Source of the DNA: Candidatus Australimonas brisbanensis
GTDB taxonomy: Bacteria > Chloroflexota > Dehalococcoidia > Lucifugimonadales > Australimonadaceae
Direction of reading: 5' to 3'
Length of the DNA stretch: 64,000 bases
NCBI GenBank assembly: GCA_038147155.1
Contig: JAYQTA010000003.1
Coordinates: 90,838 to 154,837 of the forward strand
The notes beneath the pieces are model-generated. The model was not told the origin of the DNA and searched no databases. It saw nothing but the letters and a program-made list of their open reading frames with translations. The position numbers were made by a program, and so were the translations under genes. This document shows, piece by piece, positions 24,918-63,032 of the stretch (its first letter is position 1; each line of letters begins with the position of its first letter).

Positions 24918-25100
24918 AGCCCCCGCCCACTGCGCGGGCTCGATGGAAGGGGGGCTCCCCCTTCGGCCCTCAAGGGCCTACCCCCGTCTCCGCTCGCTCG
25001 GCGCTCGCTCATGGCAGCGAGCAGCCGCCGGCATCTCTCGCTCACTCCGTCCACTGCGTGGGCTCGATGGAAGGGGGGCTCCCCCTTCGGCGCTCCGCGC
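24918..25100. repeat. two tandem left-end fragments of the hairpin-rich repeat family
   Basis: GGCTCGATGGAAGGGGGGCTCCCCCTTCGGC occurs twice in direct orientation (about 24938 and 25059). The first copy continues as in 26447..26515. Confidence 0.8.
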
Positions 25101-26378
<1,278 letters not shown>

Positions 26379-26420: not shown

Positions 26421-26707
26421 TTCCCCGCTCACTTCGTTCGCTCGATGGAAGGGGGGCTCCCCCTTCGGCCCTGAATGGCCTACCCCCGTCTCCGCTCGCT
26501 CGGCGCTCGCTCATGGAAGCAGGCGCGTGGCCAGCACGCATAGTGCGGTGTTTGGAATGGGGCGCAGCCCCGAGAGGGCAAATAACCCACGATAGTCCGG
26601 GCTAGGGGGGGGGCAGTGGGGGAGTGCAACTCCCCCCGCCGGGGGTTCGGCGCGCAGCGCCCAGGGGGTGTCCCCCTTGAAACAAGGCTGCCGCAGGCAG
26701 CGGGGAA
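26421..26707. repeat. full-length copy of the MITE/REP-like hairpin-rich repeat
   Basis: Ends TTCCCCGCTC...GAAGGGGGGCTCCCCCTT and CCCCCTTGAAAC..GGCTGCCGCAGGCAGCGGGGAA are imperfect inverted repeats. Internal CTAG-GGGGGGGCAGTGGGGGAGTGCAACTCCCCCC module. Confidence 0.8.
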
Positions 26708-43731: not shown

Positions 43732-45332
43732 TGGCTAGTGCTCCCGCTCCCCACGACGACCTGCTTTATGGCGGCCTGACCCACCGAGCCAAGATGGTGG
43801 TGCTGGCCGCCGTTCTGCTGGGGCTGTTCATGGCCGCCCTGGACCAGACCATCGTCGCCACGGCCCTCCCCCGCGTGGTGGCCGAACTGGGTGGTTTCGC
43901 CCACTTCTCCTGGGTGGTCACGGCATACCTGCTGGCCTCCACGGCAGGGGTGCCCATCGCCGGCAAGTTGTCGGACCTGTACGGGCGTAAGTGGCTCTTC
44001 GCGGCGGGCCTGGTCATCTTCACCGTGGGCTCGGTGCTCTCGGGCCTGGCCGTCTCCATGGCCCAGCTCATCGCCTTCCGTGGCGTGCAGGGCCTGGGCG
44101 CCGCTGTGCTCATGGGCAACGCCTTCGCCGTCATCGCCGACCTGTTCCCGCCCCGCGAGCGCGGGCGCTGGCAGGGATTGTTCGGGGCAACCTTCGGCCT
44201 GGCTTCGGTCGTCGGCCCGCTGGCGGGCGGCTTCCTCACCGACAACCTCTCCTGGCGCTGGGTGTTCTTCATCAACGTGCCCGTGGCCGCCGCAGCTCTG
44301 ACCGTACTGATGGCGGGTATGCCGGGCACCCGCCGTCACCAGGGCCGCCCCTCCATCGACTGGCTGGGCGCTGGAGTGTTGGTGGGGGCCGTCGTCGTGC
44401 TGATGCTCGCGTTCACCTGGGCTGGCTCCACCTACGCGTGGGGCTCGGCCCAGATCATTGGCATGCTGACGGGCGCGCTGGCGCTCATCGCGCTGTTCCT
44501 GTTCGTCGAGAGGCGCGCCGCTGAGCCCATCCTGCCCCTCTGGCTCTTCACCAACCCGGTCTACCCCGTGGCGGTGGGCATCGTGTTCCTCACGGGCATC
44601 GCCATGTTCGGCGGCATCGTCTTCCTTCCCCTGTTCATCCAGGGGGTTTCCGGCGCCTCGGCCACCAACTCCGGCGCGGTGCTCATCCCCATGAGCCTGT
44701 CCATCGTGGCCGCCAGCGCCCTGGGCGGGCAGGTCATCTCCCGCACCGGGCGCTACAAGCTGTCCGCCGTGGGGGGCCTGGCCGTCATGACGGGTGGCAT
44801 GTTCCTGCTCACCCGCATGGGCGTCGGCACACCGCATCGGGACGTTATCCGCAACATGGTCATCATGGGTGCGGGGCTGGGCATCAGCTTCCCCACCTTC
44901 ATCATCGCCGTGCAGAACGCCTTCCCCCAGCGGGTAGTGGGCGTGGTCACGGCCTCGGTGCAGTTCTTCCGCTCCATCGGAGGCACCATCGGCGTGGCGG
45001 TGATGGGTTCGCTGATGGGCGCCGCCGTTGGGCGAGCCATGGCCCCGGCGCTGGAGGGTCTGCCACCCGCTGCTCAGGCGCTGCTGGCCGACCCGCAGGC
45101 GCTGGTGAACCCCCAGGCACGCGAGGCGGCGCTGTCGGCCCTAGAGGGCACGCCCGACCCCGCAGGGACGCTGACGGGAGTGTTCACCGCCATGCGGGAG
45201 GCGCTGGCTTCCGGCGTGCACCAGGTGTTCGTGGTGGCGCTGGTCATCGCCCTGACGGGGTTGGCGCTCTCCCTGGTGCTGCGGGAGATACCGCTGCGCG
45301 GGCGGCGAGTGGGCCCGCCGCCCGCGGCCTAG
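43732..45332 (+). CDS. MFS transporter, DHA2 (EmrB/QacA-like, 14-TMS) family
   Basis: [13 protein letters not shown] and [10 protein letters not shown] motifs. Start uncertain (GTG 43732 or ATG 43794). Confidence 0.8.
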
Positions 45333-45345
45333 CCGCGGGCTTGGC

Positions 45346-45648
45346 TTCCCGGCTGCCTGCGGCAGCCTTGATAAAGGGGGGCTCCCCCTTCGGCGCTGGC
45401 GCGCCTACCCCCGTCTACGCGCCCTGCCGGGCGCTCAACGTGGGGCCTGCGGCCCCGCTCGCTGGGCGATCGCATACCTCGGGACTTGTAGTGAGGCGCA
45501 GCCTCAAGAACGTCCATTGCCAGGGATAATTCGGGCTAGAGGGGTGCAGTGGGAGAGGGCACCTCTCCCCGCCGGGGGTTCGGCGCCCGCAGGGCGCCCA
45601 GGGGGTGTCCCCCTTCAATCGAGCCCGGCGTAGCCGGGCGGGGACTCC
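45346..45648. repeat. full-length copy of the MITE/REP-like hairpin-rich repeat
   Basis: Left end TTCCC-GGCTGCCTGCGGCAGCC-TTGATAAAGGGGGGCTCCCCCTTCGGCGC, right end GGCGCCCAGGGGGTGTCCCCCTTCAATCGA-GCCCGGCGTAGCCGGGC-GGGGAC. Internal CTAGAGGGGTGCAGTGGGAGAGGGCACCTCTCCCC module. Reverse complement of the copy at 52856. Confidence 0.85.
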
Positions 45649-45665
45649 CCCGCTAGAATCGGCCC

Positions 45666-48314
45666 GTGCCTACGCCGGTCCGCACGCAGTACCTGGAGAT
45701 GAAGGCGCGCCACCCCGGCGCGCTCCTCCTCTTCCGCATGGGCGACTTCTACGAGACGTTCGATGAGGACGCGCGCATCGCCGCGCGCGACCTGGAGATC
45801 GTCCTCACCCAGCGCGACATGGGCGGCGGGGAGGTGGTGCCCCTGGCGGGCATCCCCTACCACGCCCTCGACGCCTACCTGGGCCGCCTGATCCGCAAGG
45901 GCCATCGGGTGGCCATCTGCGAGCAGGTGTCCGAGCCCGACGGCAAGCGGCTGGTGGAGCGCGATGTGGTGCGGGTGGTCACCCCCGGCACGGTGCTGGA
46001 GCCGGGGCTGGTGGAGGAGGCGGCCAACACGTACCTGGCCGCCGTGGCACTGGACGGGGAGCGCGCGGGCGTGGCCCACGCGGACGTGTCCACCGGCGAG
46101 TTCGCCGTTACGGAGGTTGCGCTGGAGGACATGGCCCGCGAGCTGGCGCGCCTGGACCCACGCGAGGTGCTGGTGGCGGTGAGCGGGGTGGGTGAGGTGC
46201 CGGTGGATGCGGAGGCGATGACGCTCACGCCGTTGCCCGACGCGGCCTTCGCTCCCCGTGAGGCGCGCAGGCGTCTGCTGGCCCACTTCGGGGTGAGCAG
46301 CCTGGACGCCTACGGGTGCGAATCGATGCCCCTGGCGACGGCCGCTGCCGCCGCCATCGTGGACTACCTGGGCGAGACGCACCGTGCGGCTCTGGCCCTG
46401 CTCACGGGCCTGCGCACCTATGCGACGGGCGCGTTCATGGCGCTAGACCCCCAGACCCGGCGCAACCTGGAGCTGTTCGAGGCGGGCCGTTGGGGGGCGC
46501 GTACCGGCACGCTGCTCTCGGTGCTGGACCGCACGCGTACCCCCATGGGCGCGCGGACGCTGCGCCGGTGGCTCGGCCAGCCGCTGCTGAATCTGGGCGC
46601 ACTGGCCCAGCGCCAGGATGCGGTGGCGTGGCTTCACGCCTCCAGTCTGCGCCGCGAGGGCCTGCGGGACCTGCTGGCCGAGGTGACGGACATGGAGCGC
46701 GCCGTAGGCCGTGCGGGCGCGGGCGCCGCCGCCCCCCGTGAGTTGGCGGCGCTGCGCCGCTCCCTCCAGCGGGTGCCGGCCATCCGTGAGGCGGTGGCCG
46801 AGGCGGGCGATGCCCTGGGCTGGCTCGCGGGGGACCTGGACCCGTGCGCCGCGACGCTGGCGCTGCTCACCGACGCGCTGGAGGAGGAACCCCAGGGAGA
46901 GGTGGGTGGCGGGAAGGTGGTGCGCGCGGGCTTCAACCCGGAGATGGACGAGCTGCGCGATGCGGCGCGCGATGCCCGCTCCTACATCGCGGGGCTGGAG
47001 CGGCGCGAGCGCGAACGCACGGGCATCGCCTCCCTCAAGGTGGGCTACAACCGGGTGTTCGGCTACTACCTGGAGGTCACCAACGCCCACCGGGACGCGG
47101 TGCCGGAGGATTACATCCGCCGCCAGACCCTGGCCAACGCCGAGCGCTACTACACCCCGGAGCTGAAGGAGCACGAATCACGCGTGCTCAACGCCGGCGA
47201 ACGCATGGAGGAGTTGGAGCAGGCCCTCTACCGCCAGCTGTGCCGCCAGGTGGCGGACGACGCGTCGCGTGTCCGGCGCACCGCCGGTGCCGTGGCTGCG
47301 CTGGACGTATTCACCGCCCTGGCCGATGCCGCCAGCCGCTTCGGCTACGTGCGGCCCACCCTGGATGAGGGCGACGCGCTCATCATCCGCAACGGGCGCC
47401 ACCCCGTGGTGGAGCGGATGCTGCCGGAGGGGGCCTTCGTGCCCAACGACACGGCGCTGCGCGCCGCTCCCCAGGGCAGAGCCGTAGCGGACGATGGGCC
47501 GGACGCAGGGCAGGTCATCATCCTCACGGGGCCCAACATGGCGGGTAAGTCCACCTACATGCGCCAGGTGGCGCTCATCGTTCTGCTGGCCCAGGTGGGC
47601 TCCTTCGTCCCAGCGGACGCCGCGCACGTGGGCCTCGCCGACCGCATCTTCACCCGCGTGGGGTTGCAGGACGACCTGGCTGCGGGCCAATCCACCTTCA
47701 TGGTGGAGATGGTGGAGACGGCCAGCATCCTCCACCACGCCACCCGCCGCTCCCTGGTGGTGCTGGACGAGATAGGGCGCGGCACCTCCACCTACGACGG
47801 CCTCTCCATCGCCCAGGCCGTGGCCGAGCACCTGCACAACGACCCGCGCCTGGGCTCCCGCACCCTCTTCGCCACCCACTACCACGAACTGACCGCCCTG
47901 GCCGGGCGCCTGCCCCGCGTGCGCAACCACTCCGTTGCCGTGGCCGAGGAGGACGGCGGCGTGGTGTTCCTCCACCGCATCGTCCCCGGTGGGGCCGACC
48001 GCTCCTACGGTGTCCACGTGGCCCAGCTGGCGGGGCTCCCGCGCCCCGTGGTGGCGCGCGCCTGGGAACTGCTGGCGCACCACGAGCAGGGCAACGGGAC
48101 TGGGCGCAAGAAGCGCCTGCCCGGCGAGCATGCCGCCCAGCTGGGCCTCCCCGGTCTGATACCAGGAGGGCAACCCCAGCCGTCAGCGGTGGAGGAGGCG
48201 CTGCGGGCGCTGGACGTGAACGGCCTCACCCCCCTGGAGGCGCTGAACCGCCTCTACGAGCTCCAGCAGCAGGCGCGGGGCGAGCAGGGCGGGGCCAACG
48301 GGAGGGGCGGCTAG
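45666..48314 (+). CDS. mutS: DNA mismatch repair protein MutS
   Basis: N-terminal TPVRTQYLEMK...FRMGDFYETF and Walker A GPNMAGKST. 882 aa. Confidence 0.95.
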   Translation: MPTPVRTQYLEMKARHPGALLLFRMGDFYETFDEDARIAARDLEIVLTQRDMGGGEVVPLAGIPYHALDAYLGRLIRKGHRVAICEQVSEPDGKRLVERDVVRVVTPGTVLEPGLVEEAANTYLAAVALDGERAGVAHADVSTGEFAVTEVALEDMARELARLDPREVLVAVSGVGEVPVDAEAMTLTPLPDAAFAPREARRRLLAHFGVSSLDAYGCESMPLATAAAAAIVDYLGETHRAALALLTGLRTYATGAFMALDPQTRRNLELFEAGRWGARTGTLLSVLDRTRTPMGARTLRRWLGQPLLNLGALAQRQDAVAWLHASSLRREGLRDLLAEVTDMERAVGRAGAGAAAPRELAALRRSLQRVPAIREAVAEAGDALGWLAGDLDPCAATLALLTDALEEEPQGEVGGGKVVRAGFNPEMDELRDAARDARSYIAGLERRERERTGIASLKVGYNRVFGYYLEVTNAHRDAVPEDYIRRQTLANAERYYTPELKEHESRVLNAGERMEELEQALYRQLCRQVADDASRVRRTAGAVAALDVFTALADAASRFGYVRPTLDEGDALIIRNGRHPVVERMLPEGAFVPNDTALRAAPQGRAVADDGPDAGQVIILTGPNMAGKSTYMRQVALIVLLAQVGSFVPADAAHVGLADRIFTRVGLQDDLAAGQSTFMVEMVETASILHHATRRSLVVLDEIGRGTSTYDGLSIAQAVAEHLHNDPRLGSRTLFATHYHELTALAGRLPRVRNHSVAVAEEDGGVVFLHRIVPGGADRSYGVHVAQLAGLPRPVVARAWELLAHHEQGNGTGRKKRLPGEHAAQLGLPGLIPGGQPQPSAVEEALRALDVNGLTPLEALNRLYELQQQARGEQGGANGRGG

Positions 48315-52855: not shown

Positions 52856-53172
52856 TTCCCCGCTCGCTACGCGCTCGCTCGAACGGAGGGGGACACCCCC
52901 TCGGCCCGCGCTGACGCGCTGGGCCTACCCCCGGCGGGCAGAGGTGCCCTCTCCCACTGCACCCCTCTAGCCCGGACAATCGCTGGCCTTCGGCGCTCTT
53001 GGGGCTGCGCCCCACTACAGCTTCCGAACTATGCGGGCTGCTCTGTGCAAGCGCAGCGAGCGGGGCTGCAGGCCCCACGTTGAGCGCCCGGCAGGGCGCG
53101 TAGACGGGGGTTCGGCGCGCAGCGCCCAGGGGGTATCCCCCTTGAGACGAGCGACCGAAGGGAGCGGGGAGT
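52856..53172. repeat. full-length copy of the MITE/REP-like repeat (inverted relative to 45346)
   Basis: The reverse complement of 53060..53115 matches 45411..45470 almost base for base. Ends TTCCCCGCTCGCT...GGAGGGGGACACCCCC and GGGGGTATCCCCCTTGAGACGAGCG...GAGCGGGGAG. Confidence 0.85.
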
Positions 53173-53188
53173 ATTATGACCCCGTACC

Positions 53189-54466
53189 TTGAGCGCCCCC
53201 ACCCTCAACCCCATCGCCCGCGCCATCGCGCGCGGGTCCTTCTACTACGGCTGGGCCGTTTCTGCCTCCGTCTCGCTGACGGTGCTGGCGGCCATGACCT
53301 ACGCTGTTTCCACCTTCTCCGCCTTCGTTGAGCCCCTCTCCCGTGAGCACGGCTGGTCGCGCACGGCCATCAGCGCCGCCATCTCCTTCGGCACCGTGGG
53401 CGCGGCGGCGGCGGGCCCGCTCTTCGGACGGCTGACGGACCGCTACGGGGCGCGCTGGCTCTTCACACTGGGCACGGTGTTCATGGGTCTGGGCCTGCTG
53501 GGCATGGCCAACATGGGCAGCCTGTTCGCCTTCTACGTCTTCTACGCCATGGGCCGCACGATGATGATGAACTTCGAGCACCTGGTGGGCCCCACTGTGG
53601 TGGCCAACTGGTTCATCGCACGCCGCGCCACGGCCACCGCGCTGATGCTGGCGGCATCGCGGGTGGGGCTGGGCCTCTGGCCCGCGCTGGCGGGGGTGCT
53701 CATCGCCGTCTCCGGCTGGAAACTCGCGGCCACCGTGATGGGCATCGCGGTGCTGGCGACGGCGGTGGTGCCGCTGCTGGTGGTGGTGGCCCGGCGGCCC
53801 GAGGACGTGGGCATGGAGCCCGACGGACGCAGACCCGCCGAGGGGACGCCGGCAGAACCGGAGTGGACGGCGCGCCAGGCATTGGGCACCCAGGCGTTCT
53901 GGGCGCTGATGATGGCCTCGGCGCTGGGCCTGTTCGCAGGGGGCGGCATGGGGCTGCACCGCATCCCCTTCTTCACCGAGCGGGGCCTGAGCCCGGTGTG
54001 GGTGGGGCCGATTCTCATGGGGTTCGGCGCGGGCATGGCGGTGGGCGGGTTCGTGGCAGCGCGCATGCACCGGCGCATGGGCGCGCGCGCCGTCACGGGG
54101 GCGTTCATGGTGTATGGTGCCGCCGTCATGGCCGTTGCCCTCATCACGCCCCCCAACGGGTGGTCTGTGGTGTACGGGCTGGCCGACGGAGCGGTGTTCG
54201 GCGGCATGTTCACGTTGCAGCCGGTGATCTACGCGGGCTTCTACGGGCGGCGCTCGGTGGGCACCATCCGCGGCCTAGCGCACCCGGCGCTGATGCTGGG
54301 CAACGCTGCGGGTGCGCTCTTCGGCGGCGTGCTGTATGACTTCACCGGCGGTTCCTACACCCTGGTGTTCCTCACCTTCAGCGTCCTGCTCCTGGCGGCG
54401 GCGGGGCTGGTGGCCCTGGCTCGCCACCCTGGCGCATCGCCCGCCACGGACGCCGCCCATGCCTAG
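53189..54466 (+). CDS. MFS transporter (OFA-like)
   Basis: [15 protein letters not shown]-terminus, 12 helices. TTG start is uncertain. Confidence 0.8.
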
Positions 54467-55724
54467 CCCGGCCGCAGCACTGCGGGCGGTGCGTGAGCGC
54501 CCACTGGTGCGCCAGCTCATCCTGCTCTACACCGCCACGGTGCTGGTGGGGGCGGGGCAGGGGACGCTGGTGCCCACGATCCCGGCGCTGGACGATGCCT
54601 TTGGGGTCTCGGCGGGCGCGGCGGCGCAGGTCATCACCGCCTACGGCATCGGCCGCTTCGGCGGCATGGTGGTGGGCGGGATGGTGGTGGACCGGTTCGG
54701 CCCACGCCTGGCGGTGACCGTCGGCCCCGTGGTGCTGGCGCTCTCCGCCCTGGGTGCGCTGCTCACCCCCTGGTTCGTCGTGCTACTGGGCATCGTGTTC
54801 GTCCTGGGCGTGGGCGATGCCTTCTGGCAGATGGGGCGAGAGATCACGGGCGTGGAGCTGGTGCGCTCCGACCAGCGCGGCCGGTTGCTATCGGGCTTCA
54901 TGGGTTTCCACGCCGTGGGCCAGTCCACGGGCGCGGTGGTGGGTGGGCTCATCACCGACGGATTCGGCTATCGGGGCGTGTTCGTCTTCTACCTGGCGGT
55001 GGCGCTGGTGGTGCTGGTGCTGGGGCGGATGATGACCACCCCACCGCACCACCGCCACGAGGCCCCCGCGCGCACGGGCCCCGCTCGGCGAGGCCCCCTG
55101 GGATGGGTGAGCGGGCTGCGCGAGATATTCCTCGCCATCGACCCGGCCCTGCGCCTCTCCTACGCCATCTTCGTCTTCGCCACCCTGTCCATGATGACCT
55201 ACCGGATGGTCTACCAGGCCATCATGCCGGTGTACGCCGCTGATGAACTGGGCATGTCCTCCACCCAGGTGGGGCTGGTCTTCTCCATCATCGGCGTGTT
55301 CTCTCTGCTGATGATCGTCCCCTCCGGCCTGCTCTCGGACAAGAAGGGGCGCAAGTGGGCCACCGTGCCCTCAACGCTGATCCCGGGCGTGGCCTTCATG
55401 CTGCTGCCGTTGAGCAGCGTGCCGCTGCACATGGTGTTCATCGGCGCGGGCATCGGCATCGCCAACGGCCTCTCGCTGGGCTCCATCGCCACCTCCACCT
55501 ACGACGTCTCGCCGCCCCACGTGCGCGGCCGGTTGCAGGCGGTGCGGCGCACCGTGGCCGAGGTGGGCGGCATCGGCGGGCCCATGCTGGGCGGGTACCT
55601 GACCAACGTCCACGGGCCGGGCATGGCGTTCTGGGCCACGGGGCCATTGGCGCTGGTGGCAGCGGTGCTCCTGTTCTTCGTGGCCAAGGAAACGCTGACG
55701 CGCCAGCGGCGGGAGGTGGGCTAG
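54459..55724 (+). CDS. MFS transporter (different subfamily)
   Basis: Start trimmed to ATG 54459 ([11 protein letters not shown]...), overlapping the upstream stop by 8 nt. 12 helices. Confidence 0.78.
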   Translation: MPSPAAALRAVRERPLVRQLILLYTATVLVGAGQGTLVPTIPALDDAFGVSAGAAAQVITAYGIGRFGGMVVGGMVVDRFGPRLAVTVGPVVLALSALGALLTPWFVVLLGIVFVLGVGDAFWQMGREITGVELVRSDQRGRLLSGFMGFHAVGQSTGAVVGGLITDGFGYRGVFVFYLAVALVVLVLGRMMTTPPHHRHEAPARTGPARRGPLGWVSGLREIFLAIDPALRLSYAIFVFATLSMMTYRMVYQAIMPVYAADELGMSSTQVGLVFSIIGVFSLLMIVPSGLLSDKKGRKWATVPSTLIPGVAFMLLPLSSVPLHMVFIGAGIGIANGLSLGSIATSTYDVSPPHVRGRLQAVRRTVAEVGGIGGPMLGGYLTNVHGPGMAFWATGPLALVAAVLLFFVAKETLTRQRREVG

Positions 55725-55726
55725 CC

Positions 55727-57004
55727 GTGTGGCTGGTGCGGCGCACCCCCTTCTACTACGGGTGGGTGGTGGCGGGGGCCGCCTCAGCCACCATGATGCT
55801 CACGGGCACCTTCGCAGCGCCCATCTTCGGCGTGTTCATCGAGCCGTGGACGGCGGAGTTTGGCTGGTCTCGCACGGCCATCTCCGGCGGCTTCTCCTTC
55901 GCCACCGTGGTGGCGGCCCTGGTGGGCCCGCTGGCCGGGCGGGGGCTCGACCGCTACGGCGGGCGCCTGTTCCTGGGGGGCGGCGCGCTGGTGATGGCGG
56001 GATCACTCCTGGTGCTCTCGCGGGTGAGCAGCCTGCTGGCGCTCTACCTGGTCTTCTCCGTGGGCCGTTCGGCCATGATGACCATCCAGAACCTGGCCGC
56101 CCACACCTTGGTGGCCAACTGGTTCGTGCGCCGCCGCGCCTTCGCCTCTGCCCTGGCGCTCAACGGCTCGCGGGTGGGGCTGGCCGTCTGGCCGCTGGTG
56201 GCCGCAGGGGTCAGCGCCGCCGCGGGCTGGCGCACGGCCATGGTGGTGATGGGCGTGAGCATCGGCATCCTGTCTTTGATACCGCTGGTGCTGGTGGTGG
56301 CTCGGCGGCCGGAGCAGGTGGGCCTGCTGCCCGACGGCGCCTCCGCAACGCCCGCGGCGGGTGGTGTGCTCCGGCACGCCCCGGAGCAGCGCCAGTGGAC
56401 CCCCCGTGAGGCGCTGCGCACCCGCGCCTTCTGGCTGCTCATGTCGGCTCACATGGCGGCCATGGTGGCGGGGGGCGGCATGGGCGTGCATCGCATCCCC
56501 TACTTCGTCGCCAAGGGGCTCGATGAAGCGCTGGTGGGGCTGTTCATCGTCGCCTTCGCCGTGGGCATGGGCATCGGCGGCTTCTTCGCCGCAGCCGCGG
56601 TGCGGTGGGTGCCCGTGCGCCGCGTCATCGGCCTCTCCCTGGCGGGCGCGGCGGGCAGCACGGCGCTCATCCTGCTGGTGCCGGGCAACGCCCTGGCGGT
56701 GGGCTACGGCTTCCTGGACGGGCTGTTCGCGGGGGGCATGTTCGCCCTGCTGCCGGTGGTGTACGCCGACTACTACGGGCGCAACGCCATCGGCACCATC
56801 CGGGGCATCACCCACCCCGCCGTGGTCACGGCCAACGCTGCCGGGCCCCTGGTGGCCGGGGTGGTGTTCGATGTGCTGGGCGGCTACACCTTCGCCTTCT
56901 TCGCCTTCGGCATCGTCCTGGTGGCGGGGGCGAGCGCCTCGTGGCTGGCCGCTCCGCCCGCCGTTGACAGCGCTCCGGTCTCCCCACAGACTGACGCCAC
57001 CTAG
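55727..57004 (+). CDS. MFS transporter (OFA-like)
   Basis: GTG 55727 (VWLVRRTPFYYGWVVAG...) lies 2 nt after the upstream stop. Paralog of 53189. Confidence 0.8.
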   Translation: MWLVRRTPFYYGWVVAGAASATMMLTGTFAAPIFGVFIEPWTAEFGWSRTAISGGFSFATVVAALVGPLAGRGLDRYGGRLFLGGGALVMAGSLLVLSRVSSLLALYLVFSVGRSAMMTIQNLAAHTLVANWFVRRRAFASALALNGSRVGLAVWPLVAAGVSAAAGWRTAMVVMGVSIGILSLIPLVLVVARRPEQVGLLPDGASATPAAGGVLRHAPEQRQWTPREALRTRAFWLLMSAHMAAMVAGGGMGVHRIPYFVAKGLDEALVGLFIVAFAVGMGIGGFFAAAAVRWVPVRRVIGLSLAGAAGSTALILLVPGNALAVGYGFLDGLFAGGMFALLPVVYADYYGRNAIGTIRGITHPAVVTANAAGPLVAGVVFDVLGGYTFAFFAFGIVLVAGASASWLAAPPAVDSAPVSPQTDAT

Positions 57005-57023
57005 CGCACGCGAGGAGGCGGTC

Positions 57024-57857
57024 ATGGCAACCGACGGCGGCTACGCACATCCCGAGCACCTGGTGGACCCTGCCTGGCTCCAGGCGCACCTGAACGATGG
57101 GGACCTGGTCATCGTGGAGGTGGGCGCCCAGCCCGACCCCTTCGCCGCCGGGCACATCCCCGGCGCCATCCCGTGCGCTGACTGGCACATCAAGGACAGG
57201 GCCAACCCCGCGCTGGTGGCCCCGCCCGCCGAGGCTGCCGCCATGCTGGAGGCGCTGGGCATCGGCGACGGCACGCGCGTGGTCGCCTACGACCGCACCC
57301 GCAACCGCGACGCCTCCCGCCTGTGGTGGGTGCTGCGCTACTACGGCCACACCAACGTGCAGGTGCTGGACGGCGGGTGGAAGCACTGGGGCATCGTCGG
57401 CGGGCCGGTGGAGCAGGGGGCGGGCAGCGCCCCCCGCGCCGGGGCGCGCTTCACCCCCCGCGTGGACGCCGCGCACCTGTGCACCGTGGACAGCCTGAAG
57501 GCGGCCATCGGCGATGGGCGCTCCGTCATCTGGGACGCGCGCGGGGAGGACGAGTACACCGGCGCCAACGACCGGGGCAACAAGCGCAAAGGCCACGTGC
57601 CGGGGGCGCGCCACCTGGAGTGGACGAACCTGGTGAACGAGGCCGACCACACCTTCAAGCCCGCCGCCGAGCTGCGAGCGCTGGTGGCCAGCATCGGCAT
57701 CAGCCCCGAGACACCCGTCCACGTCTACTGACAGGGGGGTGTCCGTGCGGCGCACGGCACACTGGCCCTCAGCCTCCTGGGCTACGAGAAGGCGTACATG
57801 TACGACGGGTCCATGGGTGAGTGGGCCAATCGGGACGACACTCCCCTGGAGATGTAG
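57024..57857 (+). CDS. two-domain rhodanese sulfurtransferase with in-frame UGA (candidate selenocysteine) replacing the catalytic Cys
   Basis: ATG 57024 after GAGGAGG. The track ORF stops at TGA 57729..57731 (…TPVHVY*). The same frame continues QGGVRAAHGTLALSLLGYEKAYMYDGSMGEWANRDDTPLEM to TAG 57855..57857, completing the C-x-G-x-R active-site loop and the YDGSxxEW motif. Confidence 0.75.
57739..57762 (+). promoter_or_regulatory. SECIS-like hairpin downstream of UGA 57729..57731
   Basis: GUGU-CCGUGC-GGC-GCACGG-(C)-ACAC: 6-bp and 4-bp stems with one bulged C. The G-rich apical loop starts at 57749, 17 nt after the last base of the UGA. Confidence 0.4.
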
Positions 57858-57878
57858 CGGCCTCGCCGGCGGATGAGC

Positions 57879-57958
57879 CTAGAGGGGTGCAGGGGAGAGG
57901 GGACCTCTCCCTGCCGGGGGTAGACGCGAAGCGTCACAGGGGGTGTCCCCCTGCCGTC
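57879..57958. repeat. right-end module of the repeat family (copy a)
   Basis: CTAGAGGGGTGCAGGGGAGAGGGGACCTCTCCCTGCCGGGGGTAGACGCG..GGGGGTGTCCCCCTGCCGTC. Confidence 0.75.
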
Positions 57959-57982
57959 GAACCCGCGAAGAGGGTGGAGAAC

Positions 57983-58016
57983 GCAGAGGCCCCGCGAGTC
58001 ATCGCGGGGCCTCTGC
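57983..58016. terminator. bidirectional terminator-like hairpin between convergent genes
   Basis: Perfect 15-bp stem GCAGAGGCCCCGCGA / TCGCGGGGCCTCTGC with a 4-nt loop. Only a weak T tract (TTCG) follows on the + strand. Confidence 0.5.
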
Positions 58017-58077
58017 TTCGAGAGGGCGGGCCTGGGGAGTGGACGGGGCCAGAGGGGAAGGGGCTCCGTCCGTCAGT

Positions 58078-58159
58078 CCCGAGGGGGATGCAAGGGGGAA
58101 TGGAAGTCCCCCTGCCGGGGGTAGTGCCTCCCGCGCGCGGGGGGTGTCCCCCTGCCGTC
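58078..58159. repeat. right-end module of the repeat family (copy b, direct repeat of 57879)
   Basis: …GGGGGAATGGAAGTCCCCCTGCCGGGGGTAGTGCC..GGGGGGTGTCCCCCTGCCGTC. The 3' half is the same as in copy a, and the stem sequence differs in a compensatory way. Confidence 0.7.
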
Positions 58160-58175
58160 AGAGCAGTCCCGCGTC

Positions 58176-59015
58176 CTAGTTGATGTCGAACACCGCCTGG
58201 ATCGTCACGCTCACGGTCAACTCGTCCGCCGAGATGATGGTGGGCGTCGCCTCGCCGATGGCCGCGTCGGCCGCCGCGAAGGCCCGCTCGTCCAGCGTCT
58301 TGGGGTAGGCGGAGTAGGAGGACTCAGCCACGTATGCCAGCTGCCCGCGCTGCACGCCCAGGCCCTGGGCGTAGGTGTCCGCCCTTCCCAGCACGTCGGC
58401 CAGCGCCAGCTCACGCGCCTGCTGCTCGGCGGCAGCGCCGTCCTCAAGGCTGAAGGAGATGCCGTTCACGCGGGCGTTGTCGCCACCGGCCAGGGCCGCG
58501 GCGTCAACCACGCTGCCCACCTCGTCCAGGTCGCGCACCTTGGCCGTCACCTGGTTGCTCACGCGGTAGCCCACCAGCACCGACTCGCCACCGAAGGTGG
58601 AGGAGCGGTACTCGTACTGAGGCTGGACGGAGAAGTACCGCGTGGCGATGTCCCTGTCCGCCACGCCCGCCGCGTGCAGCGCCGCGACCACCGCGCTCAT
58701 GGCGCGGGCGGCTTCCTCGCGCGCCTCGGCCACCGACTTGGCCGTCGCCTCGACGCCCAGGCTCACCACCGCCAGATCCGGCTGGGCCTTGACCACGCCG
58801 GTGCCCGTCACGTGGATGCCCGTGCCCGAGTAGGACGTCTGCGTAGTGATGCCGATGCCCTTGCCCAGCGCCTCCAGCTGCGCCGTGGACAGGTCTCCCA
58901 GCGCCGAGCCCCGCACCGTCGCGTCCGGGGAGCATGCCGCTCCCATCAGGCCCAGCGCCGCGAGCGCACCCACCAGCGCGAGCCTCCCACCACCCATCCG
59001 CCACATCCTGCCCAT
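58176..59015 (-). CDS. SIMPL-domain (DUF541, YggE-like) secreted/lipoprotein
   Basis: Signal peptide ending LMGAAC. GTGVVKAQPDLAVVSLGVE...YFSVQPQY matches the SIMPL architecture. Confidence 0.78.
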   Translation of the reverse strand: MGRMWRMGGGRLALVGALAALGLMGAACSPDATVRGSALGDLSTAQLEALGKGIGITTQTSYSGTGIHVTGTGVVKAQPDLAVVSLGVEATAKSVAEAREEAARAMSAVVAALHAAGVADRDIATRYFSVQPQYEYRSSTFGGESVLVGYRVSNQVTAKVRDLDEVGSVVDAAALAGGDNARVNGISFSLEDGAAAEQQARELALADVLGRADTYAQGLGVQRGQLAYVAESSYSAYPKTLDERAFAAADAAIGEATPTIISADELTVSVTIQAVFDIN

Positions 59016-61125: not shown

Positions 61126-61200
61126 GACCCGGTAGCTCAACGGCAGAGCGTCGGACTTTTAATCCGAGCGTTGTGGGTTCAAATCCCACCCGGGTCACCA
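61126..61200 (+). tRNA. tRNA-Lys (anticodon UUU), CCA encoded
   Basis: Hand-folded cloverleaf: acceptor GACCCGG/CCGGGTC, D stem GCTC/GAGC, anticodon stem TCGGA/TCCGA with loop CTTTTAA, T arm GTGGG-TTCAAAT-CCCAC, discriminator A, CCA. Confidence 0.9.
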
Positions 61201-61802: not shown

Positions 61803-62306
61803 CTACCAGGGGCTCTCGGCATCCTCCAGGTAGGCGTCGCGCACGTCCGCCCCGCGCAGGTTCACGTCGATGAGCCGCACCTGACGCAGCCACGCGCCCA
61901 CCAGGCACGCCCCTTCAAGCCACGCCCCGGCCAGCCGGGCGCGGGTGAGGTTGGCCCCACGCAGGTTGGCCCCACGCAGGTCGGCCCCGCGCAGGTCGGC
62001 CCCGGTGAGCACCGCCTCCTCCAGGCGCGCCCCGCGCAGGTTGGCGTTGCGCGCCCGCGCGCCCAGCATGTCCGCGCCACCCAGGTTGGCCCCGGCCAGG
62101 TTGGCCCCGCGCAGGTCGATATCCTCCAGACGGGCGCGGAACAGCCGCGCAGCCGCCAGGTTGGCACCGGACAGCTTCACCCCGCGCAGGTCGACACCCG
62201 GCAGGTAGGTGAGCGAGAGGTCGGCGCACAGGCCGCCCGGCTCACCACGCAGCCACGCCTGGTGGGCATCGACGATGGCAGCCAACTGCTTGGGGGTGTA
62301 GTCCAC
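61803..62306 (-). CDS. pentapeptide-repeat protein
   Basis: About 25 consecutive A(D/N)LxG-type pentapeptides (ANLRGANLTRARLAGAWLEGACL...). Confidence 0.85.
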   Translation of the reverse strand: MDYTPKQLAAIVDAHQAWLRGEPGGLCADLSLTYLPGVDLRGVKLSGANLAAARLFRARLEDIDLRGANLAGANLGGADMLGARARNANLRGARLEEAVLTGADLRGADLRGANLRGANLTRARLAGAWLEGACLVGAWLRQVRLIDVNLRGADVRDAYLEDAESPW

Positions 62307-62755: not shown

Positions 62756-62974
62756 TTCCCCGCTCGCTGCGCTCGCTCGTCTGAAGGGGGACACCCCCTT
62801 GGGCGCTGCGCGCCGAACCCCCGGCGGAGGGAGTTACACTCCCACACTGCACCCCCCTAGCCCGGACAACCGTTGCTGGTAAGCATGCTTGGGGCTGCGC
62901 CCCACTCCAAACACCGCACTACGCGTGCTCGCCACGCGCCGGCTGCCATGAGCGAGCGCCACGCGAGCGGGGCC
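62756..62974. repeat. shorter variant of the MITE/REP-like repeat (inverted orientation)
   Basis: Starts TTCCCCGCTCGCTGCGCTCGCTCG and ends GAGCGAGCGCCACGCGAGCGGGG. The interior is collinear with the reverse complement of 26505..26707. Confidence 0.8.
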
Positions 62975-63032
62975 GCATGTATCCTGGGCGCACCGGGCGC
63001 ATCCCATACCTGTCCGGTGCATGAGGTGTGCT

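Follow-up and report, generated by a model that had tools for sequence, protein, structure and literature searches.

The stretch of DNA analysed here (the window) comprises 64,000 nucleotides (nt) of contig JAYQTA010000003.1 from the uncultured Chloroflexota bacterium Candidatus Australimonas brisbanensis, has a GC content of 70-75%, and carries a family of hairpin-rich repeats between its genes. A preliminary description made from the letters alone had proposed a modular, non-coding family at six intergenic loci, resembling miniature inverted-repeat transposable elements (MITEs) or repetitive extragenic palindromes (REPs), and all six loci proved to hold related sequence at the stated coordinates. 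The genes flanking them encode DsbA-like, DUF1015 and BrkB/YihY proteins, MFS transporters, MutS, a class II aminoacyl-tRNA synthetase, and rhodanese, SIMPL, NIPSNAP and DUF1330 proteins. Tandem, convergent and divergent gene arrangements all occur among the six loci, and the elements lie both in sense (copy B) and antisense (copy A) to their neighbours.

Copy A (26421..26707; plus strand, strand being understood as element orientation) is full length with 287 nt and consists of a left arm (about 26421-26492), a middle part and a structured unit designated the S module (about 26602-26707). Copy B (45346..45648, plus strand, about 300 nt) occupies the spacer between an MFS transporter gene and mutS, and copy C (52856..53172, minus strand, 317 nt) that between divergent genes for the class II aminoacyl-tRNA synthetase and an MFS protein. 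These three are the full copies, spanning 287-317 nt. Copy D (62756..62974, minus strand), between the divergent NIPSNAP and DUF1330 genes, is 5'-truncated and lacks the left arm. Locus E (24918..25100, plus strand) had been taken for a single element; its sequence does belong to the family, in the form of two direct left-arm modules (24921-25018 and 25045-25100) without an S module, as delimited by direct repeat family D2 and by covariance-model arms at 24941-24996 and 25065-25149. Locus F had likewise been described as one element at 57879-58159. It consists of family sequence, arranged as two separate stand-alone S modules on either side of an older terminator-like hairpin: F1 (57879..57981, plus strand, about 103 nt) and the more diverged F2 (58083..58164, plus strand), which abuts the stop codon of the SIMPL gene.

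Copies A to D were collinear over about 220-310 nt with a mean column identity of 73% in the alignment, and their matches in BLAST and nhmmer had E-values of 1e-26 to 1e-85, with nhmmer scores of 275 bits for A, 285 bits for B, 265 bits for C and 207 bits for D (model positions 61-309). Pairwise divergence between copies was 16-33%. As the copies are collinear, they are not generic terminator hairpins. BLAST and profile searches of the 64-kb window gave matches at the six loci only. The pattern GCCGGGGGT-N12-30-GGGGGTGTCCCCCT was found six times in the window and not once in 100 shuffles, and AGGGGGNNNCCCCCT occurred ten times against 0.04 expected from shuffles. An unfiltered covariance model run on both strands returned six full modules at 60.7-68.5 bits, together with five partial arms in inverted orientation at 19-30 bits, and outside the six loci it found no credible module in 64 kb, only coding-sequence noise. 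The S cores were located at 26603-26684 in copy A (67.3 bits), 45536-45621 in B (68.5 bits), 52880-52970 in C (60.7 bits) and 62778-62860 in D (63.2 bits), with F1 and F2 scoring 62.3 and 66.2 bits, and the inverted arms of the full copies at 26443-26498 (A), 45368-45426 (B) and 53092-53149 (C, 29.9 bits).

Within the elements, which measure 103-317 nt, all open reading frames (ORFs) are mechanical, 48-76 amino acids (aa) long and unconserved across copies. Two of them, 45329..45517 and 62834..63022, had already been suspected to be artefacts; both are mechanical minus-strand frames of 62 aa and bear no resemblance to each other. The proposed character of the family, modular, hairpin-rich, non-coding, MITE/REP-like and situated between genes, is supported.

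Module architecture and stem covariation

The S module (about 100 nt) starts with (CTAG)RGGGGTGCAG, followed by a hairpin of variable sequence, P1, and by (C)TGCCGGGGGT. A second variable hairpin and the invariant hairpin GGGGG-TGT-CCCCC come next, and the module ends with (GCCGT)TCGA or TCAAnCGA, a third variable hairpin and GGGGAA. In the full element (about 300 nt) the left arm is a partial S module in inverted orientation; a conserved middle of about 120 nt and a complete S module follow, and the two ends therefore form imperfect inverted repeats. These terminal repeats are about 70-75 nt long with three hairpins in each arm, and the order of motifs within them is as first listed. In gapped alignments the ends of A, B and C matched at 49/76, 52/79 and 54/84 positions (64-66%), with alignment scores of 20-27 against a mean of 6-7 (sd 2) and a maximum of 16 in shuffles, which confirmed the reported imperfect inverted ends. 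Gapped alignment was required, an ungapped inverted-repeat search of the copies giving almost nothing. The inverted copy in the left arm is more complete in B and C than in A.

The S module also occurs alone, without inverted ends, at 57879-57981 and 58083-58164 in the window and at four loci (L008, L011, L005 and L010) of the related Chloroflexota metagenome-assembled genome (MAG) JAYNIL01. The forms seen thus include singlets (F1, F2, L008, L011) and tandem arms, the latter at locus E and in the related contig L114. The end on the S side is constant over all copies compared, and the other boundary varies, falling at model positions 2-9, 61, 117, 152, 196-199 or 237; the boundary at 196-199 is recurrent and corresponds to the S-only form. 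In F1 and F2 the junction is GCAG-G...CTGCCGGGGG instead of GCAGT...CCGCCGGGGG.

Stem changes between copies had been described as compensatory, with GGGAGAGG/CCTCTCCC, GGGGGAGT/ACTCCCCC and GGGAGT/ACTCCC as examples. The listed pairs are correct, and the pattern was borne out in a model-based alignment of 51 distinct copies, in which both sides had changed in seven of the nine pairs of helix P1. Of the P1 cells, 94.1% were paired against 86.8% in shuffles, a value attained by none of 500 shuffles, and when partners were slid by 1-3 columns as a control only 59-74% were paired. The invariant columns fall within the unpaired G-rich flanks (GGGGTGCAG, CTGCCGGGGGT) and GGGGGTGTCCCCC. The alignment was fitted to the covariance model and the copies are mutually related; the P1 numbers therefore support the hairpin and do not prove selection, and templated correction within quasi-palindromes could give the same picture as selection for structure. 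RNAalifold on a MAFFT alignment of the S cores missed P1 because two subfamilies were misaligned two columns out of register, and this alignment was replaced by the model-based one.

Both strands of copy B folded well relative to shuffles (z about -4.6 and -4.9), as expected from its inverted repeats. In 50 of 54 copies the G-rich strand had the more stable fold of the two, by about 4 kcal/mol. As a strand test this comparison of folding energies is uninformative, for the G-rich strand always wins and the wobble pairs in P1 are too few to set G:U against A:C.

Gain and loss of copies at orthologous sites

The closest relatives of the window's proteins were found in MAG JAYNIL01 and in JGI estuary contigs (DUF1015 87-96% and MutS 93-94% identical). 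The next relatives showed about 60-70% protein identity, and the few named ones among them are Dehalococcoidia or Chloroflexi MAGs. Mobility was examined by comparing orthologous spacers in syntenic contigs of the relatives, which provided direct evidence beyond the data of the preliminary description. The BrkB-DUF1015 spacer (site A) measures 351 nt with copy A in the window and is empty, at 65-67 nt, in three contigs (L110, L111 and L112) whose DUF1015 proteins are 87-96% identical to that of the window. In JAYNIL01 (L109, DUF1015 90% identical) the same spacer holds an oppositely oriented copy, displaced by about 25 nt. Site B, filled by a full copy in the window, is empty in L114, and JAYNIL01 has a different copy there, inverted, truncated and further upstream. 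At site C, where the window again has a full copy, the spacer of JAYNIL01 is empty (114 nt), and L114 contains at the same point a 5'-truncated copy in the opposite orientation with an extra tandem arm.

The two left arms of site E are absent from L112 and present in JAYNIL01 with the same right junction. The F1 module is absent from the orthologous rhodanese-SIMPL spacer of JAYNIL01, and only the second module of locus F, F2, is common to that relative, where it has an 8-nt deletion. Over positions 36-58 kb of the window the profile search found four copies, against one in the syntenic 22.6 kb of JAYNIL01. Copies have thus been gained or lost at orthologous intergenic sites within the clade, and insertions have occurred in either orientation and repeatedly into the same spacers. 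These sequence comparisons indicate that the elements are, or were, mobile.

Empty and filled alleles could be aligned at two sites. The empty A allele reads ..ATGC-TTCCCCGCT-ATACTGG and the filled one ..ATGC-TTCCCCGCT[element]GCGGGGAA-TGCCCGCT-ATACTGG; the corresponding B alleles read CTCGCCCGGCT-AGAATCG and TTCCCGGCT[element]GGGGA-CTCCCCCGCT-AGAATCG. A further copy at 3294-3580 of contig L001 has the variant left terminus TTCCTCGCT, and its right flank holds CCTCGCGT. Imperfect repeats of 8-9 nt resembling TTCCCCGCT flank copies A and B and the L001 copy, and one such sequence is present in the empty alleles of A and B. At these junctions, therefore, a 9-mer equal to the reverse complement of the element end is already present in the target, and in the filled site it stands on either side of the element. 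The junctions are compatible with a preferred target that is duplicated over about 9 bp or with insertion beside a terminus-like sequence. The sequence that follows GGGGAA differs from copy to copy, which led to the rejection of an interpretation in the style of IS200/IS605 elements in which the right end of the element carries its own copy of the target.

Copy number, distribution and gene context

Near-identical window sequence was present in four estuary metagenome runs, and no RNA run contained it. In the estuary runs, word depth was 125-156 for copy A and as high as 285-430 in the core, compared with about 12-15 in the flanks. Core depth corresponds to about 20-30 times the flank value, and contigs of at least 88% likeness gave 10-30 times flank depth over the element. 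The estuary (Logan) contigs break at the elements, and their loose ends carry diverse flanking sequence. The raised depth, the contig ends at elements and the diverse flanks point to tens of copies with at least 88% identity, and the family is multi-copy. No population-level empty alleles were seen in the four runs, where the joints were chimeras between copies.

The family is not confined to the window: JAYNIL01 also contains full copies, and the core was found in dozens of metagenome contigs. The window's own genome was not among the species-representative genomes scanned. The long form is limited to the window's clade. The S core is spread more widely, as a dispersed repeat of other Chloroflexota-like contigs: a Chloroflexi MAG from groundwater (L006) carries it, as do about 30 contigs from freshwater sediment. 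The closest named relative of the SmpB protein on a sediment contig comes from a Dehalococcoidia MAG (75%). Compact cores of 50 nt without the second hairpin were found in L095, L099, L100, L058 and L055 and in one IMG/VR contig (L202). Host contigs of the S core have 55-70% GC and often carry two copies within a few kb, and the neighbours of 36 loci were diverse, unrelated housekeeping genes. Among viral contigs there were 160 pattern matches with one true compact core (L202), the rest being chance or unrelated GGGGGTGTCCCCC tandem repeats. Sediment-type elements (L043, L074, L023, L089, L106, L031, L018, L055) have an extra conserved 3' stretch, ..GGGCGGGTGGGTGGGAAG..ACGCCCATGTT(A/G)CGGCGACCACGCCGACGCCGCCCA.., downstream of the S core, which is absent from the window family; the elements are therefore longer there and may have an architecture of their own.

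Several other repeats were met in the same searches. A different metagenome repeat, ..GGCGCCGAAGGCGCCGA-CGGGGGTGGGGTnTGGGGA-GGGGGTATCCCCC-TCCCCAGTGGGG.., with nested palindromes and AT-richer flanks, was present in 19 contigs (L013, L015, L021, L024, L025, L028, L029, L033, L034, L037, L039, L041, L044, L051, L079, L080, L084, L094 and L102) and was recovered only because it has CGGGGGT...GGGGGTRTCCCCC in common with the family. Digester and activated-sludge contigs (L019, L035, L047, L056, L068, L069, L097, L098, L108) have a conserved stretch, CGGGGGTCCGGGAC-CGGAGGTCCTGGCGGGGTCCAGGGGGTATCCCCCTGGCAGGA..GCATTTGCATATGCAAATGC, that recurs in many samples. Tandem arrays of units such as CGGGGGT(CA)GGGGGTGTCCCCC(TTATG) occurred in L042, L067, L090, L223, L229, L264 and L273. 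The contigs with these arrays are unrelated, and several are of low GC (0.38-0.44) and labelled as giant-virus MAGs in IMG/VR; the arrays look like a recurrent type of hairpin repeat unrelated to the window family.

In the window, the long ORFs annotated for DUF1015 and the class II aminoacyl-tRNA synthetase extend into copies A and C. Their homologues have 425 aa (DUF1015) and 440-452 aa (synthetase), so the true starts lie outside the elements. Scans of 45250-45750 and 57700-58250 detected no sigma-70-like promoter in B or F and no hairpin-plus-T-run terminator, only hairpins followed by TT at most. A perfect 15-bp hairpin, GCAGAGGCCCCGCGA-GTCA-TCGCGGGGCCTCTGC, lies at 57977-58016 between the convergent rhodanese and SIMPL genes and is kept in JAYNIL01; it is probably an ancestral bidirectional terminator, on which the terminator scan was silent because it has no T run. 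It also gave weak sub-threshold Rfam matches to sodF small RNA and F6. Directly upstream of mutS, at 45650-45665, CCCCG(C/G)TAGAATCG with a -10-like TAGAAT is kept in the window, L113 and L114, and the insertion of copy B lies just upstream of this motif; the MFS gene found in front of mutS in the window and JAYNIL01 is missing from L114. The region 53189-57731 contains three tandem paralogous MFS transporter genes and the rhodanese gene; its direct repeats (families D5 and D9) are spaced by 2511 nt and 71-77% identical. The mechanical ORFs of this region overlap heavily and are over-long compared with the JAYNIL01 genes of 425, 421, 421 and 235 aa. A gene for a pentapeptide-repeat protein at 61803-62306 (minus strand) shows a 15-nt periodicity that accounts for repeat families D1 and D7, and beside it lies a tRNA gene at 61126-61197 (plus strand).

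Origin of the family and comparison with known systems

The family is real and previously undescribed, and its kind, MITE/REP-like, is a familiar one. We consider it likely that, in this uncultured Chloroflexota lineage of high GC, the six loci are members or fragments of a single non-autonomous mobile DNA family, built in the manner of REPINs or bacterial interspersed mosaic elements (BIMEs). The enzyme that moves the elements would be encoded at another place in the genome and would recognise the G-rich single-stranded motifs together with the hairpins; an enzyme reading both would explain why stems change only when compensated and why the flanks stay fixed. Insertion would prefer a TTCCCCGCT-like target, the reverse complement of the element's own end AGCGGGGAA, and effects on neighbouring genes through transcript stability or read-through are possible. 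The mobilising enzyme could plausibly be a hairpin-recognising HUH/Y1 protein (RAYT/TIRYT-like, RAYT being a REP-associated tyrosine transposase) acting on single-stranded DNA; a DDE transposase that works on the inverted ends and duplicates about 9 bp of the target is a candidate of only slightly lower plausibility, and an enzyme of some other type would account for what remains.

Several observations weigh against this interpretation. The search for an enzyme covered 144 ORFs from 36 loci, 34 and 20 ORFs of the window and 20 further neighbours, and neither the window nor the fetched loci yielded a transposase, a RAYT or any other candidate. Pfam summaries of the window and the loci showed no Y1 or other transposase among the 25 most frequent families listed, and 30 ORFs scanned singly gave no transposase, the matches shown being all to housekeeping genes. 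No longer element bounded by the family's ends was seen in the loci examined. The stand-alone S modules without inverted ends are awkward for a DDE cut-and-paste model, and the long inverted ends with a possible 9-bp duplication for one of the IS200/IS605 type. Direct repeats are imperfect and present in about 3 of 8 assessable copies, with none at C, D, L003 and the S-only copies, and the empty sites need not be ancestral, as deletion between short direct repeats could in principle have produced them. Covariation was counted on an alignment fitted to the model and could also result from templated quasi-palindrome repair. The GTAG tag is unconserved, the sequence after CGGGGGT... being GTAG, GTTC, GTTG, GTTT or GTCG.

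Other explanations were weighed against the same evidence. That the elements are immobile REP-like relics, retained or domesticated, with differences due to deletion, inversion and recombination of old copies, seems unlikely. The divergence of 16-33% between copies, so that no copy is very recent, speaks for it, as do the truncated or rearranged copies (D, E, L113, and L114 with its tandem extra arm), the imperfect junction repeats, the lack of any transposase found and the persistence of the S core in divergent lineages. Loss alone is insufficient, however, to account for site A, where the window and JAYNIL01 copies differ in position and orientation and three relatives are empty, a pattern repeated at site B, and the 10-30-fold flank depth at no less than 88% likeness implies many fairly similar copies. 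It is quite improbable that the S module is instead a functional structured RNA, either a small RNA or a cis element (stabiliser, attenuator or processing site) serving its neighbours. Conserved unpaired motifs and covarying stems are typical of functional RNAs, the G-rich strand is the better folder in 50/54 copies, a mild excess of copies is antisense to neighbouring genes, and sediment copies match the Clostridiales-2 RNA of Rfam (RF02937) with 30.1, 27.9 and 23.8 bits (E 1e-3 to 7e-2). These scores are far off the gathering score of 58.6, however, and window copies had no RF02937 match at E up to 10. In the whole window only tRNA reached the Rfam gathering threshold, and permissive scans of B and F returned noise. 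The strand difference in energy is expected from G+T richness alone, and the orientation count rests on crude gene calls. Copies moreover lie either way round, beside unrelated genes in tandem, convergent or divergent arrangement, come and go among close relatives, and are matched by no RNA run. That the motifs merely reflect chance, or generic GC-rich terminator hairpins of a genome with 71% GC, has a negligible probability: a GC content of 70-75% does make short G/C palindromes common, and GGGGGTGTCCCCC-type hairpins exist in unrelated repeats elsewhere, but the collinearity over about 300 nt with E down to 1e-85 refutes it, the motif patterns were absent from shuffles, the elements contain no hairpin-plus-T-run, and the terminator-like hairpin of locus F is ancestral and lies between the modules.

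A mobile family of this kind explains the assembly breaks at contig ends, the spurious ORFs and the over-extended gene starts, and its members provide markers with which strains of an uncultured Chloroflexota clade from estuaries can be typed. Its G-rich unpaired motifs are fixed across genomes of 55%-71% GC, with stems that change only when compensated. It is thus a good test case for hairpin-recognising enzymes that maintain non-autonomous repeats outside the Proteobacteria, in which almost all REP/RAYT work has been done, and should its cognate enzyme come to light, the compact core of 50 nt would serve as a defined substrate. A single feature could raise the family above a familiar kind, namely the deep conservation of the S core. 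A more far-reaching proposal, which we regard as rather doubtful, is that the S core, (C)GGGGGTGCAG-hairpin-CTGCCGGGGGT-spacer-GGGGGTGTCCCCC, is the site recognised by an undescribed hairpin-reading enzyme system, for instance a TIRYT-type Y1/HUH, inherited vertically across much of the Chloroflexota and representing a new REP-like class; such a system may be related to the Clostridiales-2 motif of Firmicutes. If true, this class would lack the GTAG tag and have multi-hairpin modules.

Among known systems, a CRISPR array (no regular spacing), an integron attC site (no cassette context) and a Tn3-type inverted repeat (wrong terminal sequence) were dismissed from the sequence itself. The modular BOX elements of Streptococcus pneumoniae and the small non-coding repeats (SNRs) of Deinococcus radiodurans are likewise scattered between genes, combine a handful of modules in different ways and can form stable secondary structures. 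They belong to other hosts, and no sequence relationship to the window family is known. Bacterial MITEs include Correia/NEMIS of Neisseria, ERIC, RUP and Nezha (PMC3733652). The window elements resemble them in being 100-320 nt long, under the limit of about 500 bp for MITEs, non-coding, intergenic and multi-copy, with terminal inverted repeats, a sequence foldable into a long stem-loop, presence/absence differences between relatives and a possible target duplication. Plain MITE repeats measure 15-30 bp, whereas the window ends are about 70 nt long, about 65% matched and contain three local hairpins each; insertion seems to extend to a one-ended S module that lacks inverted ends, covariation is seen in the stems, divergent lineages have the core in common, and the loci examined included no parent insertion sequence.

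The similarity to Clostridiales-2 involves the 5' part, where both have GGGgGUGCAG, a covarying hairpin of about 8 bp and CUGCCG. Only sediment-type copies match it, below threshold, and the 3' halves are incomparable. Clostridiales-2 is recorded as a candidate small RNA of Clostridiales and not as a dispersed repeat; it is without discussion in the texts searched, and the core sequence is absent from the papers searched. Repeats associated with TIRYT genes (TnpA_Y1 subclass 2.1) are flanking inverted repeats with GGGG[AT][CG]A[CG] (PMC3733652, PMC6006769). Like the window family they have long inverted repeats instead of GTAG palindromes, some of them partly self-complementary, and occur as singles, dimers and groups. 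The S-side arm has a motif of the TIRYT type, GGGGACAC, complementary to GTGTCCCC; it is the opposite-strand reading of the invariant hairpin GGGGGTGTCCCCC and fits the consensus, which for a motif of 8 nt is a lead only, and the left-arm hairpin GGGGAGCC falls outside the consensus.

Close parallels exist with the REP, BIME and REPIN sequences of E. coli and Pseudomonas and their RAYT (TnpA_REP, HUH-Y1), whose general properties have been described (PMC3733652, PMC6006769, PMC3116915). Classical REPs carry a GT[AG]G tag (PMC3733652, PMC6006769), placed at the 5' foot of their palindrome; in the sediment copies, GTA is found in a hairpin loop and is variable. The window unit of about 100 nt has three or four hairpins in contrast to the single 20-40-nt palindrome of REPs, and its doublet, unlike a REPIN, is about 300 nt long with a conserved middle of about 120 nt and, at some junctions, imperfect direct repeats of about 9 nt. 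A further difference is that no RAYT gene was seen in the window or the fetched loci. Both systems consist of short, non-coding hairpin units between genes, in which stems change by compensation and the flanking nucleotides are fixed; the units occur in either orientation as singles, as inverted doublets foldable into a long hairpin and as mosaic clusters, and the families persist across long evolutionary distances. In its architecture the window family resembles a REPIN doublet or a mosaic BIME more closely than a typical MITE.

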